This document shows positions 548-62,355 of a stretch of DNA of 64,000 nucleotides, piece by piece. The notes under the pieces were generated by a model. That model did no database searches and was not told the DNA's origin. It saw nothing but the letters and a program-made list of their open reading frames with translations. A program made the position numbers and the translations under genes. Position 1 is the first letter of the stretch. The number at the start of each line of letters is the position of its first letter. Location: positions 38,690-102,689 of the forward strand of contig JBAZNJ010000003.1 of the NCBI GenBank assembly GCA_041649315.1, given 5' to 3'. This stretch comes from Patescibacteria group bacterium (GTDB lineage Bacteria > Patescibacteriota > Patescibacteriia > Patescibacteriales > UBA12465).

Positions 548-3500
548 ATGTCTAAACGCAAATCATTCTTAGAGACCAGCACGAGCGTCCCGATGCCGGA
601 TTTGATTGAAATCCAAAAAGATTCTTATCGCTGGTTCCTAAAAGAGGGCTTGGCGGAATTATTTGATGAAATAAATCCAGTTGGCGATTTTATCGGCCGT
701 GATTTGGAATTATATTTTGAAGATTACTATCTAGATGAGCCGAAGTTTTCCGAATTAGAAAGCCGGACAAAAAATATTACTTATGAAGCGCCTTTGCGCG
801 TTAAAACCCGCTTAGTCAATAAAAAAACCAAGCGGTCTTTGAACCAGGAAATTTTTCTCGGCGATTTTCCTTTGATGACTGACAAAGGGACCTTTATCAT
901 TAACGGGATTGAACGGGTCGTTGTTTCTCAGTTAATCCGCAGCGCCGGCGTAATGTTTACAGCAGAATTTATAAAAGGAAAAAAATGTTATGGCGCAAAG
1001 ATTATTCCGAACCGCGGCGCTTGGCTGGAAATAGAAACGGACGCCAGCAAGGTTATTTGGGTTCGGATTGACCGGAAACGGAAAGTCGCGATAACTTCAC
1101 TGTTGCGCGCTTTGAATCAAGAAAGCGATAAAGAAAAATATCTTAGCGACGCTGATTTCATCAAGCTTTTTTCGGATGTTGACTTGGTTAAAGATAAAGA
1201 TGAAAAGGGTTATATTGAATCGACTTTAGAAAAAGATATTGCCAAGGACGAAGCTGAGGGCCTACAAGAGGTTTACCGCCGGATTCGACCGGGCGACTTA
1301 GCTTCGACGGAAAATGCCCGCCAATTAATCCATTCAATGTTTTTCCGTTTTGATCGTTATGATTTCGGCCGCGTCGGACGCTATAAATTAAATCGCCGCT
1401 TTGAACTTGATTTGCCGGCCAATAAAAAAGAGAATCGCGTTTTACGCAAAGAAGATTTAATTTTAATAATTAAGGAAGTCATCCGTTTGAATATTACTAA
1501 AGAGCTGGAAGACGATATCGATCATCTTGGCAACCGCCGCGTTCGGGCGATTGGCGGCTTGATTCAAAATCGTTTCCGGGTCGGCTTGGCGCGGATGGAG
1601 CGGATTATTAAAGATCGGATGTCCACTTCTGATATTGCCTCATTAACACCCTCGAAATTAGTTAACGCCCGTCCGGTAATCGGCGTGGTGCGGGAATTTT
1701 TCATGTCCTCTCAGTTGTCGCAATTCATGGACCAGACCAATCCGCTTGCCGAATTGGAACATAAGCGCCGCTTGTCGGCCATGGGTCCGGGCGGCTTGAC
1801 TCGGGAGCGCGCCGGTTTTGATGTTCGTGATGTGCATTCAACTCATTACGGCCGGATTTGCCCGATCGCGACGCCGGAAGGACCGAATATCGGTTTGGTC
1901 GGCCATTTAGCAAGTTACGCGCGGCTCAATAGCTACGGTTTTTTAGAAACCCCTTATCGTAAAGTGGCCCATGATAAAAAGGGAAGCCGGATGACGGATG
2001 AGCTTGTTTATCTTGATGCTTTTGAAGAAGAAAAATATATTACCGTTGATGCAACGATTCCGATGGATAAAAATGGTTATTTTTTAGTCGATAAATTTGA
2101 AGTTAGAAAATATGGCCAGCCGGGTTTGTCCGAGACTGGTAAGATCGATTTCGTCGGCGTGGCCGCGAATCAGATTATTTCTATCGCGACTTCGCTTATC
2201 CCGTTCATGGAACATAATGATGGTCAGCGGTCTTTAATGGGTACGAACATGCAACGTCAGGCCGTGCCGCTTGTTAAAGCCGAAGCCCCGATTGTCGGGA
2301 CCGGCGTTGAAGAACGGGCGGCGCGCGATAGCGGCCATGTCGTTATTGCCGGCGATGACGGGACGATAAGCAAAGTCGAGGCGGCGACGATTGAATTGAC
2401 GAGCAAGAAGGGTGAAATTATCACTTATGATTTAAATAAATTTTTACGCTCTAATTCTTCGACTTGTATTAATCAGCATCCGGTCGTGGAAGTTGGGCAG
2501 AAAGTCAAGAAAGGAGATATTTTGTCGGACGGCCCGGCGATTGATAATGGTGAATTATCTTTGGGTCGCAATGTTTTGGTCGCTTTTATGACCTGGGAAG
2601 GTTTTAACTATGAAGACGCGGTTATTATTTCCGAACGTTTGGTTAAGGAGGACGTTTATTCTTCTATCCATATTGAAAATTATACGATTGATGTCCGTGA
2701 TACCAAACTTGGTCCGGAAGTGATTACTAACGATATTCCGAATATTTCCGAAGAGAAATTAAAGAATTTGGACGAAGATGGTATTATCCGAATCGGCGCC
2801 GAGGTTTCTTCCGGGGATATTTTAGTCGGTAAAATTACGCCGAAAGGCGAAACGACTTTGTCGGCCGAAGAAAAATTGCTTCGGGCGATTTTTGGCGAGA
2901 AAGCTAAAGATGTTCGTGATTCTTCCTTGTATTTAGAGCATGGCGAACATGGTAAGGTTGTTGATATAAAAATATTCTCTCGTGAAGAAGGCGATAAATT
3001 ATCGGCCGGCGTTTTGAAATCTATCCAAGTCGCGGTCGCGAATCTGCGGAAAATTCAGGTCGGCGATAAAATGTCCGGTCGACATGGAAACAAAGGTGTT
3101 ATTTCCCGCGTGGTGCCGGTCGAAGATATGCCGTTTATGGCTGACGGGACGCCGATTGACGTGGTTCTGTCTCCTTTGGGTATTATTTCTCGTATGAATC
3201 TCGGCCAGTTGCTTGAAACGCATCTCGGCTTTGCCGCCAAAAAATTAGGCCATCGAGTCGTGACCCCGGCTTTAAACGGAATTACGGAAGAACAGATTAA
3301 AAGCGAATTAAAGGAAGCGGGTTTACCGGAAGACGGAAAAGTTACTTTGTATGACGGGAAGACCGGCGATGCTTATGATCATAAAATTACGGTCGGTTAT
3401 AAGTATGTGTTGAAGCTTAACCATATGGTTGAAGATAAGATTCATCAGCGTTCTATCGGTCCTTACTCTTTAATTACTCAACAGCCCTTGGGCGGTAAAG

Positions 3501-3877
3501 CGCAATTCGGCGGCCAGAGATTCGGTGAAATGGAAGTCTGGGCTTTAGAGGGCTATGGCGCGGCGCACACCTTGCAGGAAATGTTAACGATTAAATCCGA
3601 TGACGTGCCCGGTCGGAGCAAGGCTTATGAGGCGATTATCAAGGGCGAAGAAATTGAAAAACTTAATGTTCCGGAATCTTTTAATGTCTTGATTCGCGAA
3701 CTTAAAGGTCTTGGCTTGAATGTCGAATTGCTTGGCGGTACCGGCGGCCAGCCGGCTTCGGAAGTCGTAACGGAAATTGATGAAGAAATTAGTGAAGAAG
3801 AAAAATTAGCTTTAGAAAAACCGGAAATAATAGTTGATTTGAAAGAAGGTAACGAGGGGAGCGAAGTAGAAGAATAA
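548..3877 (+). CDS. rpoB: DNA-directed RNA polymerase subunit beta
   Basis: 1109-aa ORF with hallmark blocks: HLGNRRVR, LSAMGPGGLTRERAGFDVRDVHSTHYGRICPIATPEGPNIGL, MSGRHGNKGVISR and GGQRFGEMEVWALEGYGAAH. It lies directly upstream of rpoC. Confidence 0.97.
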   Translation: MSKRKSFLETSTSVPMPDLIEIQKDSYRWFLKEGLAELFDEINPVGDFIGRDLELYFEDYYLDEPKFSELESRTKNITYEAPLRVKTRLVNKKTKRSLNQEIFLGDFPLMTDKGTFIINGIERVVVSQLIRSAGVMFTAEFIKGKKCYGAKIIPNRGAWLEIETDASKVIWVRIDRKRKVAITSLLRALNQESDKEKYLSDADFIKLFSDVDLVKDKDEKGYIESTLEKDIAKDEAEGLQEVYRRIRPGDLASTENARQLIHSMFFRFDRYDFGRVGRYKLNRRFELDLPANKKENRVLRKEDLILIIKEVIRLNITKELEDDIDHLGNRRVRAIGGLIQNRFRVGLARMERIIKDRMSTSDIASLTPSKLVNARPVIGVVREFFMSSQLSQFMDQTNPLAELEHKRRLSAMGPGGLTRERAGFDVRDVHSTHYGRICPIATPEGPNIGLVGHLASYARLNSYGFLETPYRKVAHDKKGSRMTDELVYLDAFEEEKYITVDATIPMDKNGYFLVDKFEVRKYGQPGLSETGKIDFVGVAANQIISIATSLIPFMEHNDGQRSLMGTNMQRQAVPLVKAEAPIVGTGVEERAARDSGHVVIAGDDGTISKVEAATIELTSKKGEIITYDLNKFLRSNSSTCINQHPVVEVGQKVKKGDILSDGPAIDNGELSLGRNVLVAFMTWEGFNYEDAVIISERLVKEDVYSSIHIENYTIDVRDTKLGPEVITNDIPNISEEKLKNLDEDGIIRIGAEVSSGDILVGKITPKGETTLSAEEKLLRAIFGEKAKDVRDSSLYLEHGEHGKVVDIKIFSREEGDKLSAGVLKSIQVAVANLRKIQVGDKMSGRHGNKGVISRVVPVEDMPFMADGTPIDVVLSPLGIISRMNLGQLLETHLGFAAKKLGHRVVTPALNGITEEQIKSELKEAGLPEDGKVTLYDGKTGDAYDHKITVGYKYVLKLNHMVEDKIHQRSIGPYSLITQQPLGGKAQFGGQRFGEMEVWALEGYGAAHTLQEMLTIKSDDVPGRSKAYEAIIKGEEIEKLNVPESFNVLIRELKGLGLNVELLGGTGGQPASEVVTEIDEEISEEEKLALEKPEIIVDLKEGNEGSEVEE

Positions 3878-3932
3878 ACCATAAGTTTCTAATCTTTCAA
3901 TTTTTAATTTTTCAATTTTTAATTTAAATATT

Positions 3933-6900
3933 ATGCTTAATCCCATAAAAACCAGCGATTTTTCCGCCATCCGCTTAAAGCTTGCTAGCCCGGAAGAGAT
4001 CTTGAATTGGTCGCACGGCGAAATAACTCGGCCGGAGACAATTAATTATCGGACGCAGAAGCCGGAAAAGGACGGCTTATTTTGCGAGAAGATTTTCGGT
4101 CCGACTAAGGATTGGGAATGTGCTTGCGGCAAGTATAAAAAAATTCGCTATAAGGGAATCGTTTGCGATAAATGCGGGGTGGAAGTGACGCGCAGCATTG
4201 TCCGCCGGGAACGCCTCGGCCATATTTCCTTACAGATTCCGGCTACCCATATCTGGTTTTTAAGAGGCCTTTCCTCTAAGATTGGCTTGCTTTTGAATCT
4301 TGGTATCCAGTCCTTGGAAAAGGTTATTTATTACGCGAGTTTTATCGTTACCGAAGTTGATGAAAATTTAAAAGAAGCGACGATTGAACAAATTAAACAG
4401 GAATATAAGAGCAAGGTTAAAAGCATTGATAATGATTTTAATGTTCGGGCGAAAGCGCTTAAGGAAGGCGGAGAAAACGATGAAAATAGTGGCGGACTGA
4501 AAGAAGAGATTAAGGCCAAGGCGGAGAAATTAGCGCGTTTGGAAGAAGATTTTGCCCAAGCTCAGAAAGAATTAAAAGAATTAAAACCGCTTTTGATTTT
4601 ATCGGAACAGCAATATCAGGAATTGAGCCGGAAATTCGGCCATATCTTTGAAGCCGGAATCGGCGCTGACGCTATCCGCCAGCTTTTATCAAAAATTGAT
4701 TTGGAAAAAAGCATTGCGGCGTTAGAAGAAAAATTAAACGGCGCGGTCGATTCGAAAAAAGAAAAATTAGTAAAACGTTTGAAATTGTTAAAGAGTTTTC
4801 GTAATAATAATATTCGGCCGGAATGGATGATCTTGACGGTCATGCCGGTTGTCCCGCCGGATTTGCGGCCGATGGTCGCGCTTGACGGCGGACGTTTTGC
4901 CGCTTCTGATTTGAATGATTTATATCGCCGGATTATTAATCGCAATAATCGTTTAAAGCAATTAATGGAGCTGAATGCGCCGGAAGTTATTTGCCGTAAT
5001 GAAAAGCGGATGTTGCAGGAAGCGGTGGACGCTTTAATTGATAACAGCGCCCGGCATACGAAAACCGTTACTGCTTCGACTGGCCAGAAGCGCCAGTTGA
5101 AATCCTTGGCCGATACTTTAAAGGGAAAACAGGGGCGTTTCCGTCAAAATTTATTGGGTAAGCGCGTTGATTATTCCGGTCGTTCGGTTATTGTCGTCAA
5201 TCCGAAATTGAATCTTGACCAATGCGGTTTACCGAAGACCATGGCCTTAGAATTGTTTAAGCCTTTTATTATTTCCCAGTTGATTAAACGGGAAATTGTT
5301 CATAATGTCCGGAGCGCTTCTCGTTATATTGAAGCCGGGCATGACGAGGTCTGGGATATTTTAGAAGAAATTATTAAAGGCGCTTTTGTTTTGCTTAATC
5401 GGGCGCCGACCTTACATCGTTTAGGCATCCAGGCTTTCCGGCCAATCTTGATTGAAGGCAAGGCGATCCAGATTCATCCGCTCGTTTGTACGGCCTTCAA
5501 TGCCGACTTTGATGGCGACCAAATGGCCGTCCATGTGCCTTTAACTAAAGAGGCCAAACACGAGGCAGAAACTTTAATGTTGTCTTCTCATAATTTATTG
5601 AAACCGGCCACCGGCGATCCGATTGTCGCTCCAGCCCAGGATATCGTCTGGGGAACTTATTATATTACTTTAGCCGAAAAGGATTATGAGACCAAAAAAA
5701 TCGAGGAGATGAAAGCTTTCTATAATGAAGACGAAGCGCGCTTGGCTTATGAAAACGACGGGATTGATTTACATGAAGCGATTCGTGTTAAGTATAACGG
5801 CGAGATGCTTAAAACTACGATTGGACGTTTGATTTTTAATTCTTTATTGCCGGAAAAATTGCGTTATCTTAATGAGGTGGTCGGTAAAGGCAAGCTTAAA
5901 GATTTGATTCGGGAATGTTTGCGGATTTACGGCGAAGAAGAGACCGTGAAATTTATTGACGGCTTAAAGAACCGGAGTTTTTTCTTCATTACTAAATCCG
6001 GTTTGTCCTGGGGTTTCGGCGATTTGCCGTCTCTGCCGGAGAAAGACCGTTTGATTGAAGCGGCTAATCGCCAGGTGGAAGTTATCCAGGAACAGTATAA
6101 CGAAGGGCTTTTGACCGAAAGCGAGCGTTATGCCAAGGTAATTGAAGAATGGACTAACACTAAAGATAAGATTGCTAATGTTTGTAAACAGGGTTTAACC
6201 GATATTCTTCCGGTTTATTCCATGATTGATTCCGGCGCCCGCGGTTCTTGGGCTCAGCCGGTCCAGATTTTGGGCATGAAAGGCCTTGTGACTTCGCCGT
6301 CCGGCGCGATCATCGAATTACCGGTTAAAGGAAATTTTAAAGAGGGTTTCGGCGTTTTAGAATATTTTATTTCTACTCATGGCGTCCGCAAAGGTTTGTC
6401 GGATACGGCCTTAAGAACGGCCAATGCCGGTTATTTAACTCGTCGTTTAGTTGATGTTTCCCAAGACGTGATTATTTCCGAAGACGACTGCGGCGATACT
6501 GACGGCTTGGATTTGAACCGGGAAGAGATAGAAAAGAGCGGTGAAGATTTTTTCAAGCGGCTTATCGGCCGCTATCTGGCGAAAGATGTCTTGGATAAAA
6601 AAGGCAAGGTTATCCTGAAAGCCGGAGAGATGTTAGACGAGGAACATATTAAATCATTAAAAGCTAAAGATATCAGCGATGTCTGCGTTCGTTCGGTTTT
6701 AAGCTGTAAGATGCATAAGGGGATTTGCGCTAAATGTTATGGTTGGGATCTCGCTTATAATCGTCCGGTGAGCATGGGATCAACGGTTGGGATTATCGCG
6801 GCGCAATCAATTGGTGAACCGGGTACACAGTTGACGATGAGAACTTTCCATACCGGCGGCGTGGCCGGCCAGGATGATATTACCCAGGGTTTGCCGCGGG

Positions 6901-54212: not shown

Positions 54213-55400
54213 ATGCCTCAAGCATTTTATGCTCGTAAAATTTATCCAGAATTAAAAGAGCATTTAGAGAATAAACAAATTACCGTTTTGACTGGTATGC
54301 GTCGGACCGGCAAAACGACCTTAGTTCAACACTTATTGGCGGAAATTAAAAGTACCAATAAGGCTTTTTTTGATTTGCAGAAAATCAGTAATCAGGAATT
54401 GTGGTCGCAGAAGAATTTTGATAATATTATTTTGAATTTAGAGCGGCAGGGGCTTAATATTAAAGAAAAGATTTATTTAGGCTTGGATGAAATTCAATTA
54501 TTGCCGGAAGTAACCGGGGTTGTTAAATATCTTTATGATCATTATAATATCAAGTTTATTATTACCGGCTCCAGTTCCTATTATTTAAAAAATCTTTTTA
54601 CCGAATCTTTGTCCGGCCGAAAAAAAATATTTGAATTGTTTCCTTTAGACTTCGGAGAGTTCCTGGTTTTTAAAAATATTTCCGCCAGTTCGGTTGATTT
54701 TGCCGCGTCAGAATTTAATTCGACGGAATATGAAAGACTAAAAAATTTTTATGAAGAATATGTCAGATTTGGCGGGTTTCCGGAAGTAGTGTTGGCCGCC
54801 ACGGAGAGAATCAAGAAAGATTTGCTTCAGGATATTATCAGTTCTTATATTAATATTGATATTAAAATTTTGGCGGATTTCAAAGACAGCCGTAATTTAT
54901 ATAATCTAATAAAAATGCTGGCGCTGAGGACCGGCACGAAGTTGGATTACTCTAAAATTTCTCGTTTAATAGGTTTATCTCGCCAGACGGTTTTAAATTA
55001 TCTAGATCTTTTTGAAAAGACCTATTTAATTAATCGTGTTTCTATTTTCGCGAACAATCCCGACCGGGAAATCGTTAAGGCGCAAAAAATTTATTTTACC
55101 GATCCCGGATTCTTGGCGGTTCTAGGTGAAGTGAGCGGCGGCGCGAAATTTGAAAATGCGGTTTACGCGCAATTGGCGCGGCAGGGCGAGGTCCGTTACT
55201 ATTCTCTAAAAACCGGCCGGGAAATAGATTTTATTTTTGATAATAATTTAGCGTTAGAGGTTAAAGAAACGCCGGCCGTCGATGATTTGAAAGAACTTTC
55301 TGATTTAGCGGTTAAATCCGGAGTGAAAAAATATCGTTTAATCGGCCGTCATCCGGCTATTAAATTTTCTGATTATATTTGGGGCGGAGATATTAGATAA
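54213..55400 (+). CDS. AAA ATPase with C-terminal DUF4143-type domain (COG1373-like), copy 1
   Basis: Walker A GMRRTGKTT, Walker B LGLDEIQ, ITGSSS, and a wHTH-like middle (LIGLSRQTVLNYLDLFEKTYL). The tail is KIYFTDPGF...EIDFI...LEVK, a PD-(D/E)xK-like pattern. Confidence 0.8.
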   Translation: MPQAFYARKIYPELKEHLENKQITVLTGMRRTGKTTLVQHLLAEIKSTNKAFFDLQKISNQELWSQKNFDNIILNLERQGLNIKEKIYLGLDEIQLLPEVTGVVKYLYDHYNIKFIITGSSSYYLKNLFTESLSGRKKIFELFPLDFGEFLVFKNISASSVDFAASEFNSTEYERLKNFYEEYVRFGGFPEVVLAATERIKKDLLQDIISSYINIDIKILADFKDSRNLYNLIKMLALRTGTKLDYSKISRLIGLSRQTVLNYLDLFEKTYLINRVSIFANNPDREIVKAQKIYFTDPGFLAVLGEVSGGAKFENAVYAQLARQGEVRYYSLKTGREIDFIFDNNLALEVKETPAVDDLKELSDLAVKSGVKKYRLIGRHPAIKFSDYIWGGDIR

Positions 55401-57611: not shown

Positions 57612-58994
57612 ATGGCTAAATACTCTTTATTAAATCATGATATTGATACTTCATTTTTGAATATTGAAACTACTTGGGCCGGAATGCGCAGTCCGCTTTT
57701 AAAGAAACAAGTCGGTTATTTTGTGCCGGATTCTTTATGCGAAATTATTAAAGGTTCCACTTTGAATTATTATCAGAACGAACGACAGGCTAAAATATTT
57801 TCTCATGCTTGCGCTCATCAGGTTTTAAATAATACCCGTTTATTATCTACTATCAAGAAAAAAGCTTCTCTTCAGGCGACAGCCACCTTGCATTTAGCGG
57901 CTAGGAATTTTCCACTTAAGCGTTTAACCGACGAGGAACTAATTGTTTTTCTTAAAAAGAGCCGTAAGTTGCAGATGGAGATGGCGGCTTGGGGTATGGC
58001 CGTCGCTTTTGCTGATGTATATGGAGAAATTTCGAATCAAGTTTCTAAAATATTATCAAAGCGTAAAAATTTAAAATACCCAGTTAGCGTTTATCTTGAT
58101 ATTCTAGCTAACCCCACAAAATCAAGTTTGACCGCGCGAGCGTATCAAGAAATATGTTCGTCAAAAGATAATAAGTATTTACAGAAAAAATATTTTTGGC
58201 TTGATCAGGGATATATTGGGCGAGGATTGAGTGAGGCTCAAATAAAAAATATTCGCCGCCATCATAAAATCAGTCCGGCTTCATATAACGTTAGTAAGGC
58301 GGTATTATTAAGAGAACTTAATTTATCGCCTGATGAAAAAAGAATATTTGAAGTAGCGTCCGATTTAGTATTCATAAAATCTTTGCGAGCCGATTCTCGC
58401 CAGGCGATTTATGTTGTCGTCAGTAATATTGTTGATTTGTTGGCTAAGCGTTGGCGAGTTTCGGCCAGTAAATTGGAAGTATTATCAACTAAAGAATTAG
58501 TATCAGCCATCAAAAATAATAATATCAACGCCGACTCCTTGCTCATGCGTTGGAACCATAGTTTAGTGATTCCTAAATCAGTTAATAATTATTTGGTGAT
58601 TAGCGGCGCGGAAGTTGGAGGAATGTTAAAGAACTATATTGGTGTAAAAAATGAAAAAATTTTTGATTCCGCGGAGATCAAAGGTCAAATCGCTCAACCT
58701 GGCAAAGCAAGGGGAATTGTAAGATTAATTTTTGGTTCTCAGCATAATTCTCGTGTCAAGAAAGGCGATATTTTGGTTTCTATATCAACCAGTCCTCAAC
58801 TTTTGCCGGCGATGAAGCTGGCGGACGCTTTTGTGACTGATGTCGGCGGCGTCACTTCGCATGCCGCTATCGTCGCTCGGGAGCTTAAAAAACCTTGTAT
58901 CGTCGGTACGCGCAACGCCACTAAAATTTTAAAAGACGGCGATTTAGTGGAGGTGGACGCGGAGAAGGGGGTAGTTAAGAGAATAAAAAAGTAA
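57612..58994 (+). CDS. Swivel phosphohistidine-domain protein, paralog 2
   Basis: It starts 2 nt after paralog 1. The C-terminus is GQIAQPGKARGIVRLI...GDILVSISTSPQLLPAMKLADAFVTDVGGVTSHAAIVARELKKPCIVGTRNATKILKDGDLVEVDAEKGVV. Confidence 0.75.
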   Translation: MAKYSLLNHDIDTSFLNIETTWAGMRSPLLKKQVGYFVPDSLCEIIKGSTLNYYQNERQAKIFSHACAHQVLNNTRLLSTIKKKASLQATATLHLAARNFPLKRLTDEELIVFLKKSRKLQMEMAAWGMAVAFADVYGEISNQVSKILSKRKNLKYPVSVYLDILANPTKSSLTARAYQEICSSKDNKYLQKKYFWLDQGYIGRGLSEAQIKNIRRHHKISPASYNVSKAVLLRELNLSPDEKRIFEVASDLVFIKSLRADSRQAIYVVVSNIVDLLAKRWRVSASKLEVLSTKELVSAIKNNNINADSLLMRWNHSLVIPKSVNNYLVISGAEVGGMLKNYIGVKNEKIFDSAEIKGQIAQPGKARGIVRLIFGSQHNSRVKKGDILVSISTSPQLLPAMKLADAFVTDVGGVTSHAAIVARELKKPCIVGTRNATKILKDGDLVEVDAEKGVVKRIKK

Positions 58995-59082
58995 AATATG
59001 TTTGTCGCTTTGCGCCAAACATATTATCTGCGCTCGCTCGGAAAAGAAAATAAATTTTCTTTTCGCTCACTCGCTTGATAAT

Positions 59083-59104
59083 AAAAACCCCCTGTTCGGG
59101 GGGA
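59083..59104 (-). terminator. Intrinsic terminator read on the minus strand
   Basis: The minus strand reads CCCCC-GAACA-GGGGG followed by TTTTTAT. On the plus strand the C-run is 59088-59092, the G-run is 59098-59103, and the A-run is 59083-59087. Confidence 0.55.
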
Positions 59105-59179
59105 ATTTATTGTCTTACAGGCAACATGATGAGCTTTGACAACTGTAATTAATATAGCATTGTTATTTTTTGTGGTCAA
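59083..59179 (-). ncRNA. Candidate ~60-nt small RNA with its own promoter and terminator
   Basis: A minus-strand promoter reads TTGACC (plus 59174-59179), 17 nt, TATATT (plus 59151-59156). The predicted transcript runs from ~59144 down to ~59083 and ends in the CCCCC/GGGGG terminator. It contains GUUGUCAAA, complementary to UUUGACAAC in the neighbouring tRNA-like element. Confidence 0.3.
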
Positions 59180-59227
59180 GGTTTTAAATTTAGTTTTAAG
59201 ATTAGCCCCTATTGAAGCTAGCCACTG

Positions 59228-59295
59228 TGGACCCGCGGGGGATCGAACCCCGAAGACGAAGTTGTCAAAACTCGTCACGCTACCTGGCCGGGCCC
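59228..59295 (-). tRNA. tRNA-like element / degenerate tRNA (canonical acceptor and T-arm; no D-stem and no 7-nt anticodon loop)
   Basis: The minus strand has the acceptor GGGCCCG/CGGGTCC plus discriminator A, and a T-arm CGGGG-TTCGATC-CCCCG (GGTTCGATCC at plus 59240-59249). The D region is reduced to GCCAGGTAGCGT. The anticodon position is occupied by a closed hairpin, GACGAGTTT-TGAC-AAACTTCGTC-like. The terminal stem extends to 12 bp (59224-59300). No CCA is encoded, and the length is 68 nt. Confidence 0.45.
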
Positions 59296-59350
59296 ACAGC
59301 AAATTAATAATAGCAAAAGCGAGATGAAGAAAAGATAAAGTTTAATATTT

Positions 59351-60868
59351 ATGAATAAATTAAAAAATTTAAGACCCAAGCATTTAAATAGTAAGGATGA
59401 TTCCTGGATGTTGGCCGAAGATATTCCGGATTTAGATTTCCATTTTTCTCAGATTTGGCTGTCAGCTTTTGTTAATGATTTACAGAAAACCGTCGGGCGA
59501 AATTATAAGAAAGTATTAGCTATATATCATGGCGATGACTTGAAATTTTATTATGGCTCTAAGGATAGCGATGATTTTGCCCGGCATATTTTATCGCTTA
59601 TAGTTGCTGATCCGGCTTTCGGCGAAAAAATAAATCAGGAAATACGCCATTATTCCGTTAAGCTTAAAAAAGCCGCCGCTTCTTTAAATCCCGCCGGCTT
59701 AGCCTCTTTAAGTAATAAAAAATTAGTTTCTTTATATTTAGAGTTAGATAAATTGCATACGACTCTCTATTCTTGGGGTTGGCTACCGAATGCCGTGGAC
59801 ATGTTTCATGAAAATTTTACCGGATATTTAAGAAATGAATTAGCTAAATTAGTAAAGGCGAATAAGATTAGTGAGGTTTTAGTCGCCTTAAGCTCTTCTC
59901 CTAAAAAAAGCGTTATTGACGAGGAACAAGATTCATTTTTAAATTTAGTTAAATTAAAGCAAGCCGGTAAAGATAAGTTTTTTGAAAGTGCCCTTAAAAG
60001 GCATACAGCTAAATATTTTTATCTCAAGCATCTTTGGCTCGGCAAAGACGGCGTTTATGATGAAAAGTACTATTTATCGGAAATAAAATCTTTTATTGCT
60101 TCCGGGCAGAAGGCAGTCGAGTTTATTAAGTATAAAGAAAAACAGCGTCGTTTAATTTTAAAAAAACGCTCGGCTTTTATTAAAAAATTTAAAATAAAAG
60201 GGAAGCTTCTGAAAATTTTTAATATTTACGCCGAGTTTTCTGTTACCAAGGCCTTCCGTCGCGATGCTCAATTGCTTTGGGCTTATAAAATGGATTTTTT
60301 CTTTGCCGAACTTAGCCGGCGCCTGCGTTTGCCGCTTCGGCAATGTCGTTTTATTTTGCCGACCGAAATAGTCGCTGCTTTACGGAAAGGGAAGATTGAT
60401 AAAAGCAAGGCGGCGGAAGTTAAAGCGCGGTCAAAAGCCTGTGTTTATTATGGCGAGAAAAATGTTGAAGTAGTTGAAATCGGAGCGGCTGTAAAAAGAT
60501 GGGAGAAGCGGGTGACGCAGGAGGTAAATATTGATTTGCAAGAAATTAAGGGCCAGCCGGCTTGTTTAGGGCGGGCGACTGGCATTGTTCGGATTGTTAA
60601 TTCGCCGGCGGAGATGAAGAAGCTTAAAGCCGGCGATATTTTGGTAAGCATTGCGACTAATCCGGATATTGTTCCGGCCATGAAAATTGCCGGCGCTATC
60701 GTTACCGAGCAGGGCGGTATAACTTCTCATGCGGCCATTGTTTCGCGCGAGCTTAATATCCCCTGCATCATCGGCACCAAAATCGCCACACAGGTTTTGA
60801 AAGACGGGGATTTGGTTGAGGTGGATGCGGAGAAGGGGGTGGTGATGATTATTAAAAAGAAAAAATAA
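59351..60868 (+). CDS. Swivel phosphohistidine-domain protein, paralog 3
   Basis: The C-terminus is GQPACLGRATGIVRIV...GDILVSIATNPDIVPAMKIAGAIVTEQGGITSHAAIVSRELNIPCIIGTKIATQVLKDGDLVEVDAEKGVV. Confidence 0.75.
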   Translation: MNKLKNLRPKHLNSKDDSWMLAEDIPDLDFHFSQIWLSAFVNDLQKTVGRNYKKVLAIYHGDDLKFYYGSKDSDDFARHILSLIVADPAFGEKINQEIRHYSVKLKKAAASLNPAGLASLSNKKLVSLYLELDKLHTTLYSWGWLPNAVDMFHENFTGYLRNELAKLVKANKISEVLVALSSSPKKSVIDEEQDSFLNLVKLKQAGKDKFFESALKRHTAKYFYLKHLWLGKDGVYDEKYYLSEIKSFIASGQKAVEFIKYKEKQRRLILKKRSAFIKKFKIKGKLLKIFNIYAEFSVTKAFRRDAQLLWAYKMDFFFAELSRRLRLPLRQCRFILPTEIVAALRKGKIDKSKAAEVKARSKACVYYGEKNVEVVEIGAAVKRWEKRVTQEVNIDLQEIKGQPACLGRATGIVRIVNSPAEMKKLKAGDILVSIATNPDIVPAMKIAGAIVTEQGGITSHAAIVSRELNIPCIIGTKIATQVLKDGDLVEVDAEKGVVMIIKKKK

Positions 60869-61218: not shown

Positions 61219-62355
61219 ATGGATAAAAAAGTAATTAAAAGAGATATTCAAGGAAATATTGAAAATTGGCTTTTTAAAGGTAAGGTCATTATTCTTTATG
61301 GCGCCCGGCAGGTCGGAAAAACGACTTTAGCGAAAGAATTATTGCAAAAATATGGGAGAGAAGAAGCTTATTTTAATTGTGAAATAATGAGTGTGCGTCA
61401 GGCTTTAGAAAAAGAGGACCCGGCGGCGTTGCGGCGGTTTCTGGGCGACGGGAAGTTTTTTGTCTTTGATGAAGCGCAGAAGATAAAAAATATCGGTTTG
61501 GTTTTAAAGCTCTTAATTGATTCTTTCCCGGATTTACAGATTATTGCTACCGGTTCTTCGTCTTTTGATTTGGCAAATCAGGTTAATGAACCTTTGACCG
61601 GCCGGGCTTTAGAATTTACTTTATATCCTTTTTCCTGGCGGGAACTTAGAAGATTAGATAAACCCCATGAAGCTGATAGTCGTCTTAAACAATCTTTAAT
61701 TTTCGGATCCTATCCGGAAATCGCTCAGAGCGGACAGTCGGAGGCGCGCCAGTTATTGGACAATCTCGGCACAAAATATCTTTATAAAGATATTTTAACT
61801 TTTGATCGGGTACAGAAATCAAGCTTACTAATCTCCTTACTCCAGCTCCTGGCCTTGCAAATCGGTCAGGAAGTTTCTATTAACGAACTGGCCAATACAT
61901 TACGCTGTAATCGCGATACGGTTGTTAATTATTTAGATATTTTAGAAAAATCTTTTATTATTTTCCGTTTACGCGCCTATAGCCGCAATCCGCGCAAGGA
62001 AATTTCTAAAAAACAGAAGATTTATTTTGTGGACCTCGGCATTAGAAATAGTATTATTAGTCGTTATAACGAATTAGCCGTTCGTGATGATATCGGCGCG
62101 CTTTGGGAAAATTTTTGCGTGAGCGAGCGCTTTAAGAAACTGCAGGCCGAAGACATTTCCTGCCAGAGATATTTTTGGCGGACCCTAACTCGAAAAGAAG
62201 TTGATTATGTGGAGGAATATGACGACCGCTTGGATGGCTATGAGTTTAAATGGACCAAAGAAAAAATGACTCGTCCTAAAGAATTTTTAGCTTATAAGAA
62301 TAGCCGGATTATTTTAGTCAATCGCCTTAATTATCAGGAGGAGTTTTTGAGTTAA
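61219..62355 (+). CDS. AAA ATPase with C-terminal DUF4143-type domain (COG1373-like), copy 2
   Basis: Walker A GARQVGKTT, Walker B FVFDEAQ, ATGSSS, and the wHTH-like LRCNRDTVVNYLDILEKSFI. The tail is KIYFVDLGI...EVDYV. It is a paralog of 54213-55400. Confidence 0.8.
   Translation: MDKKVIKRDIQGNIENWLFKGKVIILYGARQVGKTTLAKELLQKYGREEAYFNCEIMSVRQALEKEDPAALRRFLGDGKFFVFDEAQKIKNIGLVLKLLIDSFPDLQIIATGSSSFDLANQVNEPLTGRALEFTLYPFSWRELRRLDKPHEADSRLKQSLIFGSYPEIAQSGQSEARQLLDNLGTKYLYKDILTFDRVQKSSLLISLLQLLALQIGQEVSINELANTLRCNRDTVVNYLDILEKSFIIFRLRAYSRNPRKEISKKQKIYFVDLGIRNSIISRYNELAVRDDIGALWENFCVSERFKKLQAEDISCQRYFWRTLTRKEVDYVEEYDDRLDGYEFKWTKEKMTRPKEFLAYKNSRIILVNRLNYQEEFLS

Follow-up and report, generated by a model that had tools for sequence, protein, structure and literature searches.

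A compact alanine-type tRNA-like RNA and a predicted antisense partner form a candidate two-RNA cassette in Patescibacteria

An intergenic insertion carries a compact tRNA-like element

We analysed a 64,000-nt stretch of DNA from a Patescibacteria group bacterium (GenBank assembly GCA_041649315.1, contig JBAZNJ010000003.1, positions 38,690 to 102,689; hereafter referred to as the window), in which a tRNA-like element lies on the minus strand of a non-coding intergenic gap of 356 nt (58995–59350). The genes on either side of the gap (57612–58994 and 59351–60868) encode paralogs with a C-terminal PEP-utilizer mobile domain. Both are on the plus strand, and the element is antisense to both; the first-pass annotation of this DNA had recognised the gap but had given it 355 nt and placed it, wrongly, between convergent units. 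The closest relatives of the flanking protein show 64–69% identity and include proteins from metagenome-assembled genomes (MAGs) of Candidatus Falkowbacteria. The gene order is kept in relatives (AdoHcy hydrolase, SAM synthetase, cytidylyltransferase and then three PEP-utilizer paralogs). In the syntenic loci L001–L003 (L numbers denote the loci compared), however, the second and third paralogs are separated by 8, 5 and 3 nt, respectively, and neither blastn nor the covariance model R1 described below found the element there. Since the syntenic relatives lack the gap, the 356-nt segment is an insertion in the lineage of the window. Nor do these relatives carry an intact tRNA at the site, a result that the first-pass annotation had named as pointing to a plain pseudogene.

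The element extends from G1 at 59295 to A73 at 59228. It is 68 nt long and does not encode CCA, as first reported, and the intact T-arm, the 7-bp acceptor with one G.U pair and the discriminator A that had been described are all present. The minus strand from 59300 to 59224 reads GCUGU GGGCCCG GCCAGGUAGCGU GACGAGUUUUGACAACUUCGUC UU CGGGG UUCGAUC CCCCG CGGGUCC A CAGU. The acceptor (GGGCCCG/CGGGUCC) has its sole G.U at 3:70, together with G1-C72, G2-C71 and A73, and the T-arm (CGGGG-UUCGAUC-CCCCG) combines a 5-bp stem with a loop of the UUCRANY type. The G.U pair is thus the alanine identity pair G3:U70, which had gone unremarked, and the sequence has the tRNA-Ala identity set of G3:U70 and A73 with G2:C71. 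Directly after the acceptor comes a 10-nt mini D-arm, GCC-AGGU-AGC, with a 3-bp stem containing one C.A mismatch and a 4-nt loop containing GG; the D region aligns with the mini D-arm of the family described below, contrary to the initial impression that the 5′ half of the D-stem is missing. It is followed by a 22-nt hairpin, GACGAG-UUUUGACAAC-UUCGUC, which replaces the stacked D-stem and anticodon stem, and then by UU. The fold bears out the earlier description of this hairpin as closing down to a UGAC tetraloop without a clean anticodon loop. The minimum free energy (MFE) of 59300–59224 is -37.3 kcal/mol (z = -3.4), and none of 200 shuffled sequences was equally stable. A 5′ leader, GCUGU (59296–59300), pairs with the 3′ trailer, CAGU (59224–59227), which has no CCA, and lengthens the acceptor in the predicted fold. 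The five extra pairs that led to the first-pass description of a 12-bp terminal stem are therefore present, but they are not a family trait, as the extension occurs in only 2 of 31 members (the window and L121).

The anticodon region of the window copy consists of a 6-bp stem and a 10-nt loop, in which the best 7-nt register has four closing pairs at most and places C at position 37. The element accordingly has neither the 5-bp anticodon stem and 7-nt loop (U33, purine 37) of a canonical tRNA nor its U8/N9 linker, 4-bp D-stem and 7–11-nt D-loop. The loop UUUUGACAAC contains no NGC anticodon; it reads GAC if its C-A is placed at positions 36 and 37, or UGA in the other register. ARAGORN returned 0 tRNA and 0 tmRNA for the entire 64-kb window, and Rfam at gathering thresholds gave no match to the element; no finder reported a normal cloverleaf, which the first-pass annotation had named as a result that would speak against its fold. 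The sub-threshold Rfam matches were all to tRNA-like domains (mascRNA, 25.2 bits; the tmRNA ends, 21.4 bits). In E-value mode the tRNA-clan match kept was the tmRNA match at 21.4 bits, any tRNA match scoring lower.

The element belongs to a family with a covarying body plan

Relatives were collected with a descriptor that combined GGGC, a body shorter than that of a normal tRNA, GGGTTCGATCCC, six unspecified positions and GTCCA; it was validated on the window (1 match against 0.00 expected). It matched 50 loci in species-representative genomes and at least 120 in metagenomes. Among the matches listed, 38 loci, representing 36 distinct sequences, had 7/7 acceptor pairs, although the descriptor fixed only acceptor positions 1–4 and 69–73, and one common body plan: an acceptor; a mini D-arm following it directly, without an 8/9 linker, and having a 3–5-bp stem and a 4–5-nt loop, mostly UGGY; a 6–10-bp hairpin; 0–2 nt; a canonical T-arm; and A73. 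Most of the ~35 relatives are from Patescibacteria; named sources include Saccharibacteria, Peregrinibacteria, Peribacteria, Doudnabacteria, Paceibacterota, Parcubacteria, WWE3 and unclassified Patescibacteria, and members also occur in certain DPANN archaea and in a small number of other MAGs. Nearly all members escape detection by ARAGORN and Rfam; ARAGORN calls L222 and L082, and the Rfam tRNA model barely passes for L256.

We built the covariance model R1 on the cloverleaf layout of the cleanest members. Family members score 41–75 bits against a family threshold of >40 bits, and the window element matches R1 over its full length with 58.5 bits (E ~7e-12). In a structural alignment of 34 sequences, 81.7% of the paired cells can pair, compared with 60.9% in shuffles (0/500 reaching the observed value), and the covariation score is 0.496, compared with 0.156 after shuffling and 0.11–0.14 with the partners slid; the alignment was fitted to R1, so that these figures lean to the structure, and the slid controls were calculated on the same alignment. 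Changes on both sides are found in 19 of the 25 pairs, and compensatory changes occur in all four helices. G1-C72, G2-C71 and G3.U70 are invariant in all 34 members. Two copies found by R1 alone (L250 4030–4097 and L212 3248–3316) also have G3.U70, A73 and CCA. Because G3.U70 recurs in copies that were not selected for it, the alanine set is not simply a product of the search pattern. A U at position -1 is present in 22 of 31 members and CCA is encoded in 12 of 31, as expected of RNAs that are matured like tRNAs.

A separate group of sequences took up most of the metagenome matches (L091–L210, e.g. L133, L091 and L164). These matches come from a small number of related sample series and represent a 63–64-nt repeat of tRNA origin (…GGGCCGGTCTGGACAGGTGCGGAAAATCTCGCCCCCACCGGGGTTCGATCCCCGGACCGTCCA…). 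The two strands of its acceptor do not pair in this register, and the repeat is probably dispersed in a host genome.

A predicted small RNA antisense to the element lies next to it

A second predicted gene, which the first-pass annotation had not noticed, lies 84 nt downstream of the element. On the minus strand at 59179–59151 lies a sigma-70-type promoter (TTGACC, 17 nt, TATATT, with TG before the -10) that has 10 of 12 consensus matches, is the sole promoter-scan match in the gap and ends 6 nt before the segment AGUUGUCAAAGCUCAUCAUGUUGCCUG (59118–59144, minus strand). This segment, which forms an inverted repeat with the element (I1), is complementary to 59260–59286, comprising the D-arm, the 5′ arm of the hairpin and its loop, with 26 of 27 positions paired; as minus-strand RNA, these are 22 Watson-Crick and 4 G.U pairs with 1 mismatch. 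The antisense score of 22.5 compares with a maximum of 12.5 for shuffled bodies. The predicted duplex has an energy of -41 kcal/mol, and none of the 19 other small RNAs compared binds this element better. An intrinsic terminator (CCCCCCGAACAGGGGG plus a U-tract; 59080–59108, minus strand), terminator-like on both strands, follows. These features predict a partner small RNA of ~65 nt, from ~59145 to 59080, the 5′ end of which would be antisense to the tRNA-like RNA.

The terminator hairpin (AAAAACCCCCTGTTCGGGGGGAATTTATTG…, window 59080–59121) has near-identical counterparts at L001 8533–8573 and L002 8532–8566. Both lie after a 291-aa gene of unknown function, away from the position of the cassette.

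Predicted partner genes recur in variable arrangements and are complementary to their own neighbours

The window shares with 22 relatives (23 cassettes in all) a partner gene composed of a promoter, a segment of 14–29 nt antisense to the member's own tRNA-like RNA and a terminator. In the partner-bearing members examined, 2–8 nt separate the end of the promoter from the antisense segment. Eleven members have a downstream complementary segment that scores above, or at the top of, the shuffled controls, at a distance of 38–78 nt as scored and 43–83 nt from A73. All eleven have a TTGnnn-16/18-TAnnnT promoter 4–8 nt before the segment and a strong terminator within ~10–50 nt. The target is the 5′ arm and loop of the member's own hairpin, often with the D-arm, and never the acceptor or T-arm. 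In L220, L227, L247, L254 and L212 the partner unit lies upstream of the tRNA-like gene, behind its own terminator, and four upstream segments likewise exceed the shuffle maxima. L242 and L251 have the unit downstream but on the other strand, with a shared bidirectional terminator; L212b, L244 and the second copy in L250 (L250b) are additional cases. The variable order and strand of the partner indicate pairing between two RNAs, rather than a conserved intramolecular switch or a DNA repeat.

Summed over the 11 downstream pairs, the duplexes contain 184 Watson-Crick pairs, 14 G.U pairs and 10 mismatches, even as the hairpin sequences are unrelated between members. The mean duplex energy was -37.3 kcal/mol for cognate combinations and -20.1 +/- 6.3 kcal/mol for 380 non-cognate ones, and the cognate small RNA was the best binder of 20 for 14 of the 20 tRNA-like RNAs. 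The two cassettes of the L212 genome do not cross-pair. L212 also has the smallest partner, a perfect 17-nt antisense segment with the terminator immediately after it; in L212 and L222 there are only 4–9 nt between antisense segment and terminator. As the L212 partner is made up of antisense segment and terminator, the small RNA would have only one domain, which binds its neighbour.

The minus strand of L250 (3750–4450) contains two tandem cassettes ~310 nt apart, whose small RNAs both end in …AAGAAAGCTCTTGGAARCAGGGGCTTTTTTG. A clear cognate antisense segment was seen only for the second tRNA-like copy, which has the T-loop UUUGAUU and a D-loop without GG.

Partner-bearing members may differ in hairpin loop type

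The hairpin loops of the family share a conserved C-A. With this dinucleotide at positions 36 and 37, the loops would all present NNC anticodons: GAC/AAC (Val, including the window), GUC/AUC (Asp), GCC/ACC/UCC (Gly) and, in two, AGC. Substitutions at positions 34/35 of a tRNA-Ala would yield this set. In L082, L121, L222 and L252 the loops have the canonical 7 nt, with A37, sit on 8-bp stems and read GCC, GUC, AUC and AUC, respectively. Read in this way, 20 of the partner-bearing members are non-Ala, 2 are Ala and 1 is unassignable, whereas 9 of the 11 partner-less members with adequate flanks are Ala (UGC or CGC), including compact tRNA-Ala genes in tRNA arrays. The presence of a partner appears to track a non-Ala loop, a suggestive pattern among few, related and pattern-selected sequences. 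We also considered the conserved C-A as the pairing site of a +1 G of the small RNA, but the predicted start sites do not fit; since this explanation fails, the C36-A37 reading of the loops stays conjectural.

Promoter-like elements upstream of the tRNA-like genes

The predicted transcription start of the window's tRNA-like gene (59300, minus strand) is 7 nt after an extended -10 promoter-like element, TGcTATTAT (59307–59315, minus strand), which was recognised by reading and was not picked up by a strict promoter scan of the gap. TGnTAnnnT-like elements are also present upstream in the nearest relatives, L138 and L245. A further motif, TTTCTTCAT (59324–59332, minus strand), lies 14 nt before the -10 element. 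Its general form, TTTCTT[ACT]A, was seen 10 times within 90 nt upstream of tRNA-like genes against 0.68 expected from the rest of the loci, in the upstream regions of the window, L222, L252, L121, L138, L246, L256 and L177. Its offsets are the same in L222 and L252 (-65 and -54), and it precedes the -10 by 14 nt in both the window and L138. The motif may belong to a promoter or operator common to these genes. Read on the opposite strand, it gives ATGAAGAAA, followed by one codon and then a stop, in the window, L222 and L252.

Distribution and genomic surroundings of the cassettes

Cassettes supported by covariation are present in at least seven named Patescibacteria lineages and one phage. All-against-all BLAST clustering of the neighbouring proteins, with Pfam scans of selected ones, revealed no conserved protein neighbour; the small clusters of neighbours that formed came from close relatives or a subgroup outside the candidate phyla radiation (CPR). 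In CPR genomes the cassettes adjoin housekeeping genes, for they follow AspRS or EF-G, lie between KsgA and LeuRS or precede DnaX. L250 and L212 have two cassettes each. A viral contig, L082, carries a complete cassette between a portal gene (PF04860) and a Mu-F-like head gene (PF04233). No further phage cassettes were found in a broader viral scan with a free 4:69 pair, and a BLAST search of the L082 cassette against phages gave nothing meaningful, as did a search of the whole gap of the window against annotated phages and plasmids.

Within the gap, two further hairpins (58995–59025 and 59041–59064; inverted repeats I3 and I6) lie between the upstream stop codon and the terminator of the cassette. 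They are near-perfect, with arms of 14 and 11 bp, respectively, and no U-tract on either strand; no counterparts were seen beside other family members. Inverted repeats at 59055–59076 and 59317–59338 (73%), considered as possible termini of a miniature inverted-repeat transposable element, are at about chance level and were not seen around other members. For a 505-aa open reading frame, an exact-protein look-up and a protein-based genome scan found no match; the gene is called from a later ATG (P0001).

The surrounding array differs between relatives in other respects. AAA_14/DUF4143 ATPase genes at 54213–55400 and 61219–62355 of the window interrupt the SAM-synthetase/PEP-utilizer array and are absent in L001–L003. 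As these genes are lineage-specific too, the array took up several insertions and not the RNA cassette alone. Between the cytidylyltransferase gene and the first PEP-utilizer paralog, L001 and L002 have gene-less stretches (1474–4475, 3.0 kb, and 1413–2977, 1.6 kb, respectively) where the window and L003 carry a paralog; these stretches may represent a decayed paralog or uncalled genes.

Related compact elements

Compact tRNA-Ala genes of 69 nt that share the mini D-arm and have a genuine UGC anticodon are found at L218 7753–7821, L238 3669–3737, L153 174–242 and L070 3966–4034; some belong to tRNA gene arrays, and one is on a viral contig. At L238 5290–5364 ARAGORN calls a tRNA with a 4-nt anticodon (ccaa). 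The DPANN members L228, L235, L241 and L127/L253 have G3.U70 and the loop CYGCAAA, whose structural register gives GCA (Cys-type) and whose register one nucleotide earlier gives UGC/CGC (Ala); no partner RNA was detected within 1.5 kb of them.

The viral contigs L261, L263, L268, L269, L276, L292 and L304 carry a 63-nt element, GGGTGGCCAATGGTTTCGACGGGACGCGAGTCTCGGATGGGGGTTCGATCCCCCCGCCATCCA and variants, with an Ala-type acceptor, a tmRNA-like D-loop (UGGUUUCGACGGGA) and a body shut by a short hairpin, and with no antisense partner within 700 nt. In the non-CPR MAGs L136, L185, L202, L215 and L217, a compact Ala-type element adjoins a conserved open reading frame of ~290 aa with a helix-turn-helix-like N-terminus. 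The frame looks transposase-like, and the one representative scanned (L215_3) had no Pfam match at E <= 0.001; no antisense partner was found at these loci. A search of viral contigs with the anchor CCAGGTAGC and the T-loop returned ordinary tRNAs. This anchor is unspecific because CCAGG-TA-GC is a common acceptor/D junction.

Comparison with known RNAs

The element is partly similar to several known RNAs. With its Ala-identity acceptor, canonical T-arm, reduced D region and lack of a usable anticodon, it resembles the tRNA-like domain of tmRNA (RF00023), the Rfam model that gave the best sub-threshold alignment to both ends. It differs from tmRNA in having no mRNA-like domain, pseudoknots or tag frame; it has 21 nt where the model has 312, its body is a single hairpin with a real mini D-stem, and its score is far below the gathering threshold of 47. 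The match to mascRNA/MEN-beta (RF01684; threshold 42.5) is confined to the acceptor and T-arm, and the context is bacterial, not that of a eukaryotic long non-coding RNA. YrlA gave no match at E <= 10, and the element has free, tRNA-type ends and no Ro-type stem; the first-pass proposal of a functional tRNA-like RNA gains support from the family as a whole, but not its comparison with Y-RNA-like modules. Canonical bacterial tRNA-Ala has the same acceptor identity set, T-arm, U-1, optional CCA and possibly C36-A37, whereas the element lacks U8/N9 and NGC in its loop and has a 4-nt D-loop and a variable region of 0–2 nt.

The C4 RNA of phages P1 and P7 is an antisense RNA of ~77 nt whose maturation by RNase P proceeds via a terminal helix like that of a tRNA. 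Through its loops it pairs with a sequence encoded nearby on the same strand, at the ribosome-binding site of the icd/ant mRNA. The window element likewise combines a tRNA-like helix with a nearby pairing target on the same strand. Its partner, however, is non-coding and is followed by a terminator rather than an open reading frame, C4 lacks the Ala identity set, and the Rfam C4 model had no match to the element at E <= 10. RNA-OUT and RNA-IN of IS10 are cis-antisense RNAs from overlapping opposite strands that control the transposase mRNA. There, as would be the case here, pairing starts between the unpaired 5′ end of one RNA and the loop of the partner's hairpin and then extends along the 5′ side of that stem. 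Unlike in IS10, the cassette genes are separate and neither RNA is coding. Thus, the element departs from the tested defining features of canonical tRNA, tmRNA, mascRNA, YrlA and C4, with a partial likeness to each.

As in toxin-antitoxin systems, the cassette has two adjacent small genes, with one RNA complementary to the other. We know of no toxin that is itself a chargeable tRNA mimic. The cassettes share with type I (hok/sok) and type VIII (CreTA, SdsR/RyeA) systems the fast co-varying sequences, the patchy mobile distribution, the multiple orthogonal copies and, as predicted for the cassette, the neutralisation of one RNA by the other. Type I toxins are peptides, whereas neither cassette RNA has a conserved open reading frame. 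CreT acts through tRNA biology, by sequestering a tRNA, and is repressed by a Cascade-guided RNA (PMC8501985), unlike the cassette.

The compact layout has precedents among translationally active tRNAs. M. alvus-type tRNAPyl and mammalian mt-tRNASer(UCN) have 0–1 nt between acceptor and D-stem (no 8/9 linker), a 4–5-nt D-loop (4 nt in the compact layout), a long anticodon stem and a very short variable region, and mt-tRNASer(UCN) also keeps G18/G19 and T-Psi-C (PMC7609411). These tRNAs have 6-bp anticodon stems, defined anticodons and dedicated synthetases (PMC7609411), whereas the family has stems of 6–10 bp, loops that are often irregular, alanine identity and an antisense partner. An anticodon that does not match the acceptor identity is known from tRNAProX, human tRNA-Ala(ACC) and yeast tRNA-Ala(CAG), and natural anticodon-variant Ala tRNAs mistranslate in humans and yeasts (PMC11415595); for alanine such a mismatch is possible since AlaRS ignores the anticodon. 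These hybrid-identity tRNAs are canonical cloverleaves with no antisense partner (PMC11415595), and decoding by the cassette is only putative. Neither review (PMC7609411, PMC11415595) mentions an antisense partner.

Discussion

We consider it probable, at roughly 60%, that the element is an intact member of a compact family of tRNA-like RNAs with alanine identity, and that with the neighbouring small RNA it makes up a self-contained two-RNA cassette. Our confidence in this anatomy is high, and our confidence in any purpose is low. The combination of an Ala-type tRNA mimic, predicted from its identity elements to be chargeable, with a private trans-antisense RNA would represent a new category. 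The cassette matches no family of Rfam 15. In the searchable literature, which largely lacks papers from subscription journals, no cassette of a tRNA-like RNA and a private antisense RNA is described, and nothing relevant was found on tRNA-like RNAs in Patescibacteria/Saccharibacteria, on CPR D-arm variants or on antisense RNAs to tRNA-like RNAs.

How might the two RNAs work together? The tRNA-like RNA would be transcribed from ~59300 and, by analogy with established tRNA biology, trimmed in the manner of a tRNA, with RNase P cleaving at U-1/G1, followed by 3′ trimming and CCA addition. Alanyl-tRNA synthetase (AlaRS) recognises the acceptor helix alone, G3:U70 and A73 being sufficient. Since AlaRS needs only these elements, the tRNA-like RNA is expected to be charged with alanine. 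The free 5′ end of the small RNA could then nucleate on the anticodon-like loop and zip down the 5′ arm into the D-arm, in the manner of the IS10 RNAs, and this pairing would unfold or mask the anticodon-side half and leave the acceptor/T minihelix chargeable. As the small RNA has no other domain, its job would be the gating of its one tRNA-like RNA. The purpose of such gating is the weakest step of the proposal. The tRNA-like RNA may act as an effector that can harm the cell; a plausible form is a missense tRNA that descends from tRNA-Ala, as the conserved C36-A37 may indicate, and carries alanine, in which case GAC (Val) would be the anticodon of the window copy. If such an effector were stable and its antidote short-lived, the pair would amount to an RNA-only toxin/antidote or a switchable mistranslation module, in keeping with the patchy, mobile distribution. 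We favour an effector with an antidote on several grounds: the small RNA would serve no further role, the two sequences of each pair change freely but in step, copies do not cross-pair, and the cassette is patchily distributed, lies in an insertion in the window and is carried by a phage.

In its most specific form, this proposal makes the element a natural missense tRNA masked by an antisense RNA: charged with alanine, reading Val, Asp or Gly codons and kept silent as long as the dedicated, short-lived small RNA pairs with its anticodon loop, stem and D-arm. Loss of the small RNA, through loss of the cassette or a shut-off of transcription, for example by a phage, would unmask the stable tRNA and flood the proteome with alanine substitutions. 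On the present sequence comparisons we consider this less likely than not.

A number of observations weigh against a masked effector, or against the cassette itself. The members were chosen by a pattern for G1–G3, C4-G69, U70, A73 and one T-loop sequence, the correlation between partner and anticodon comes from ~35 phylogenetically related sequences, and the promoters and terminators are consensus matches only. No partner was found near the archaeal (DPANN) members or near L256, L177 and L250a in the flanks examined. The excess of G.U over A.C (14 versus 6), examined as possible proof of selection at the RNA level, is biased by a scoring that favoured G.U. As for decoding, the C36-A37 register fails to close a 7-nt loop in many members, including the window copy, in which the other register does not close either; the structural loop lies one nucleotide earlier (C37-A38) in L255, L125, L212 and L212b, and Asp-type loops have C33. 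Such an irregular register makes the decoding competence of the window copy doubtful, and to our knowledge an anticodon stem of 7–10 bp is without precedent in cytosolic elongator tRNAs. Finally, the window has no terminator between the tRNA-like gene and the small-RNA gene, and in a 226-nt read-through RNA that joins both partners the long-range helix is the predicted MFE structure (-75.2 kcal/mol, z = -4.6).

The main alternative to a masked effector, rather unlikely in our judgement, is a gated non-ribosomal alanine donor. In this scheme AlaRS would charge the element as a non-decoding carrier that delivers alanine to a non-ribosomal acceptor, for instance through a Fem-type peptidoglycan transferase, lipid aminoacylation or peptide tailing, and the small RNA would tune its availability or bar it from the ribosome. 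The invariant Ala identity set and the frequently undecodable loops are in keeping with such a role. The pairing never touches the acceptor/T minihelix, and the bound form could still be charged; there is also the precedent of FemX, which is reported to require only the acceptor arm of tRNA-Ala (PMC2175331). Several orthogonal copies in one genome and a copy in a phage, however, are not what a housekeeping donor would lead one to expect. Neither a transferase gene nor any other protein gene is conserved beside the cassette, and the conserved C-A of the loop would be left without a role.

We regard as improbable that the element is an ordinary working tRNA of unusual shape that the finders miss, its nearby complement being incidental or a processing aid. 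The -1 U, A73 and the CCA of 12 of 31 members would all be expected of such a tRNA, the positions of CPR copies after AspRS, after EF-G and between KsgA and LeuRS are typical of solitary tRNA genes, and the ARAGORN calls of L222 and L082 and the just-passing Rfam score of L256 point the same way. So do the relatives with a true UGC anticodon in tRNA arrays and the known function of compact tRNAs. G3.U70 on non-alanine loops would, however, cause mistranslation, and the loop register is inconsistent across the family and absent in the window. Moreover, the partner co-varies with the element, has its own promoter and terminator and, among the 23 cassettes, is placed on either side and on either strand, which makes an incidental complement hard to accept.

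The long-range helix of the read-through RNA and the position of the repeat arms around a promoter would also suit a cis-acting element, either a single-transcript switch, such as an attenuator or processing signal, or a DNA inverted repeat acting as an invertible switch or recombination site. This is very improbable: the partners that lie upstream behind their own terminators and those on the opposite strand speak against an invertible promoter, a DNA inverted repeat and a single-transcript switch, neither co-transcription nor repeat geometry being conserved, and no recombinase is conserved nearby.

The view of the element as a decayed tRNA-Ala gene, already raised by the first-pass annotation, in which the D-arm and anticodon arm were lost by random mutation and no role is left, draws on the silence of ARAGORN and Rfam, the C.A mismatch in the D-stem, the loop that does not close as 7 nt and the location in a lineage-specific insertion, but it is largely refuted by the recurrence of the same non-canonical plan in ~35 sequences with compensatory changes, by the perfect acceptor and T-arm, by the promoter-like element, by the maintenance alongside of a 27-nt partner with 26 pairs and its own promoter and terminator, and by the syntenic relatives, which have no tRNA at the site that could have decayed. 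Equally hard to credit is a two-piece, tmRNA-like rescue RNA, in which the Ala-charged tRNA-like piece would be joined through an intermolecular, P2-like helix to the small RNA as tag template; G3.U70, the reduced D-arm and the missing anticodon are hallmarks of tmRNA, and the Rfam model aligns to both ends, but this reading is disfavoured by small RNAs that have no conserved reading frame or stop and in some cases only the 4–9 nt before the terminator, and there are no pseudoknots, no ARAGORN tmRNA call and no score near the gathering threshold.

If both RNAs of the proposed two-RNA cassette are expressed as predicted, they would constitute a new kind of bacterial RNA system, and a class of genes would have been overlooked by the standard annotation of tRNAs and non-coding RNAs in CPR genomes. 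The cassette would provide a natural example of a tRNA that is switched by pairing to its anticodon arm, and its orthogonal hairpin/antisense pairs would be parts for switchable tRNAs in synthetic biology. Two questions would become open to test: does gated mistranslation exist as a deliberately encoded trait of cells, and can the logic of a toxin-antitoxin system be built purely from RNA when the toxin is a tRNA? Should the missense reading be true, the cassette would serve as a toxin/antidote or an abortive-infection switch made of RNA only, or as a device for programmable mistranslation.

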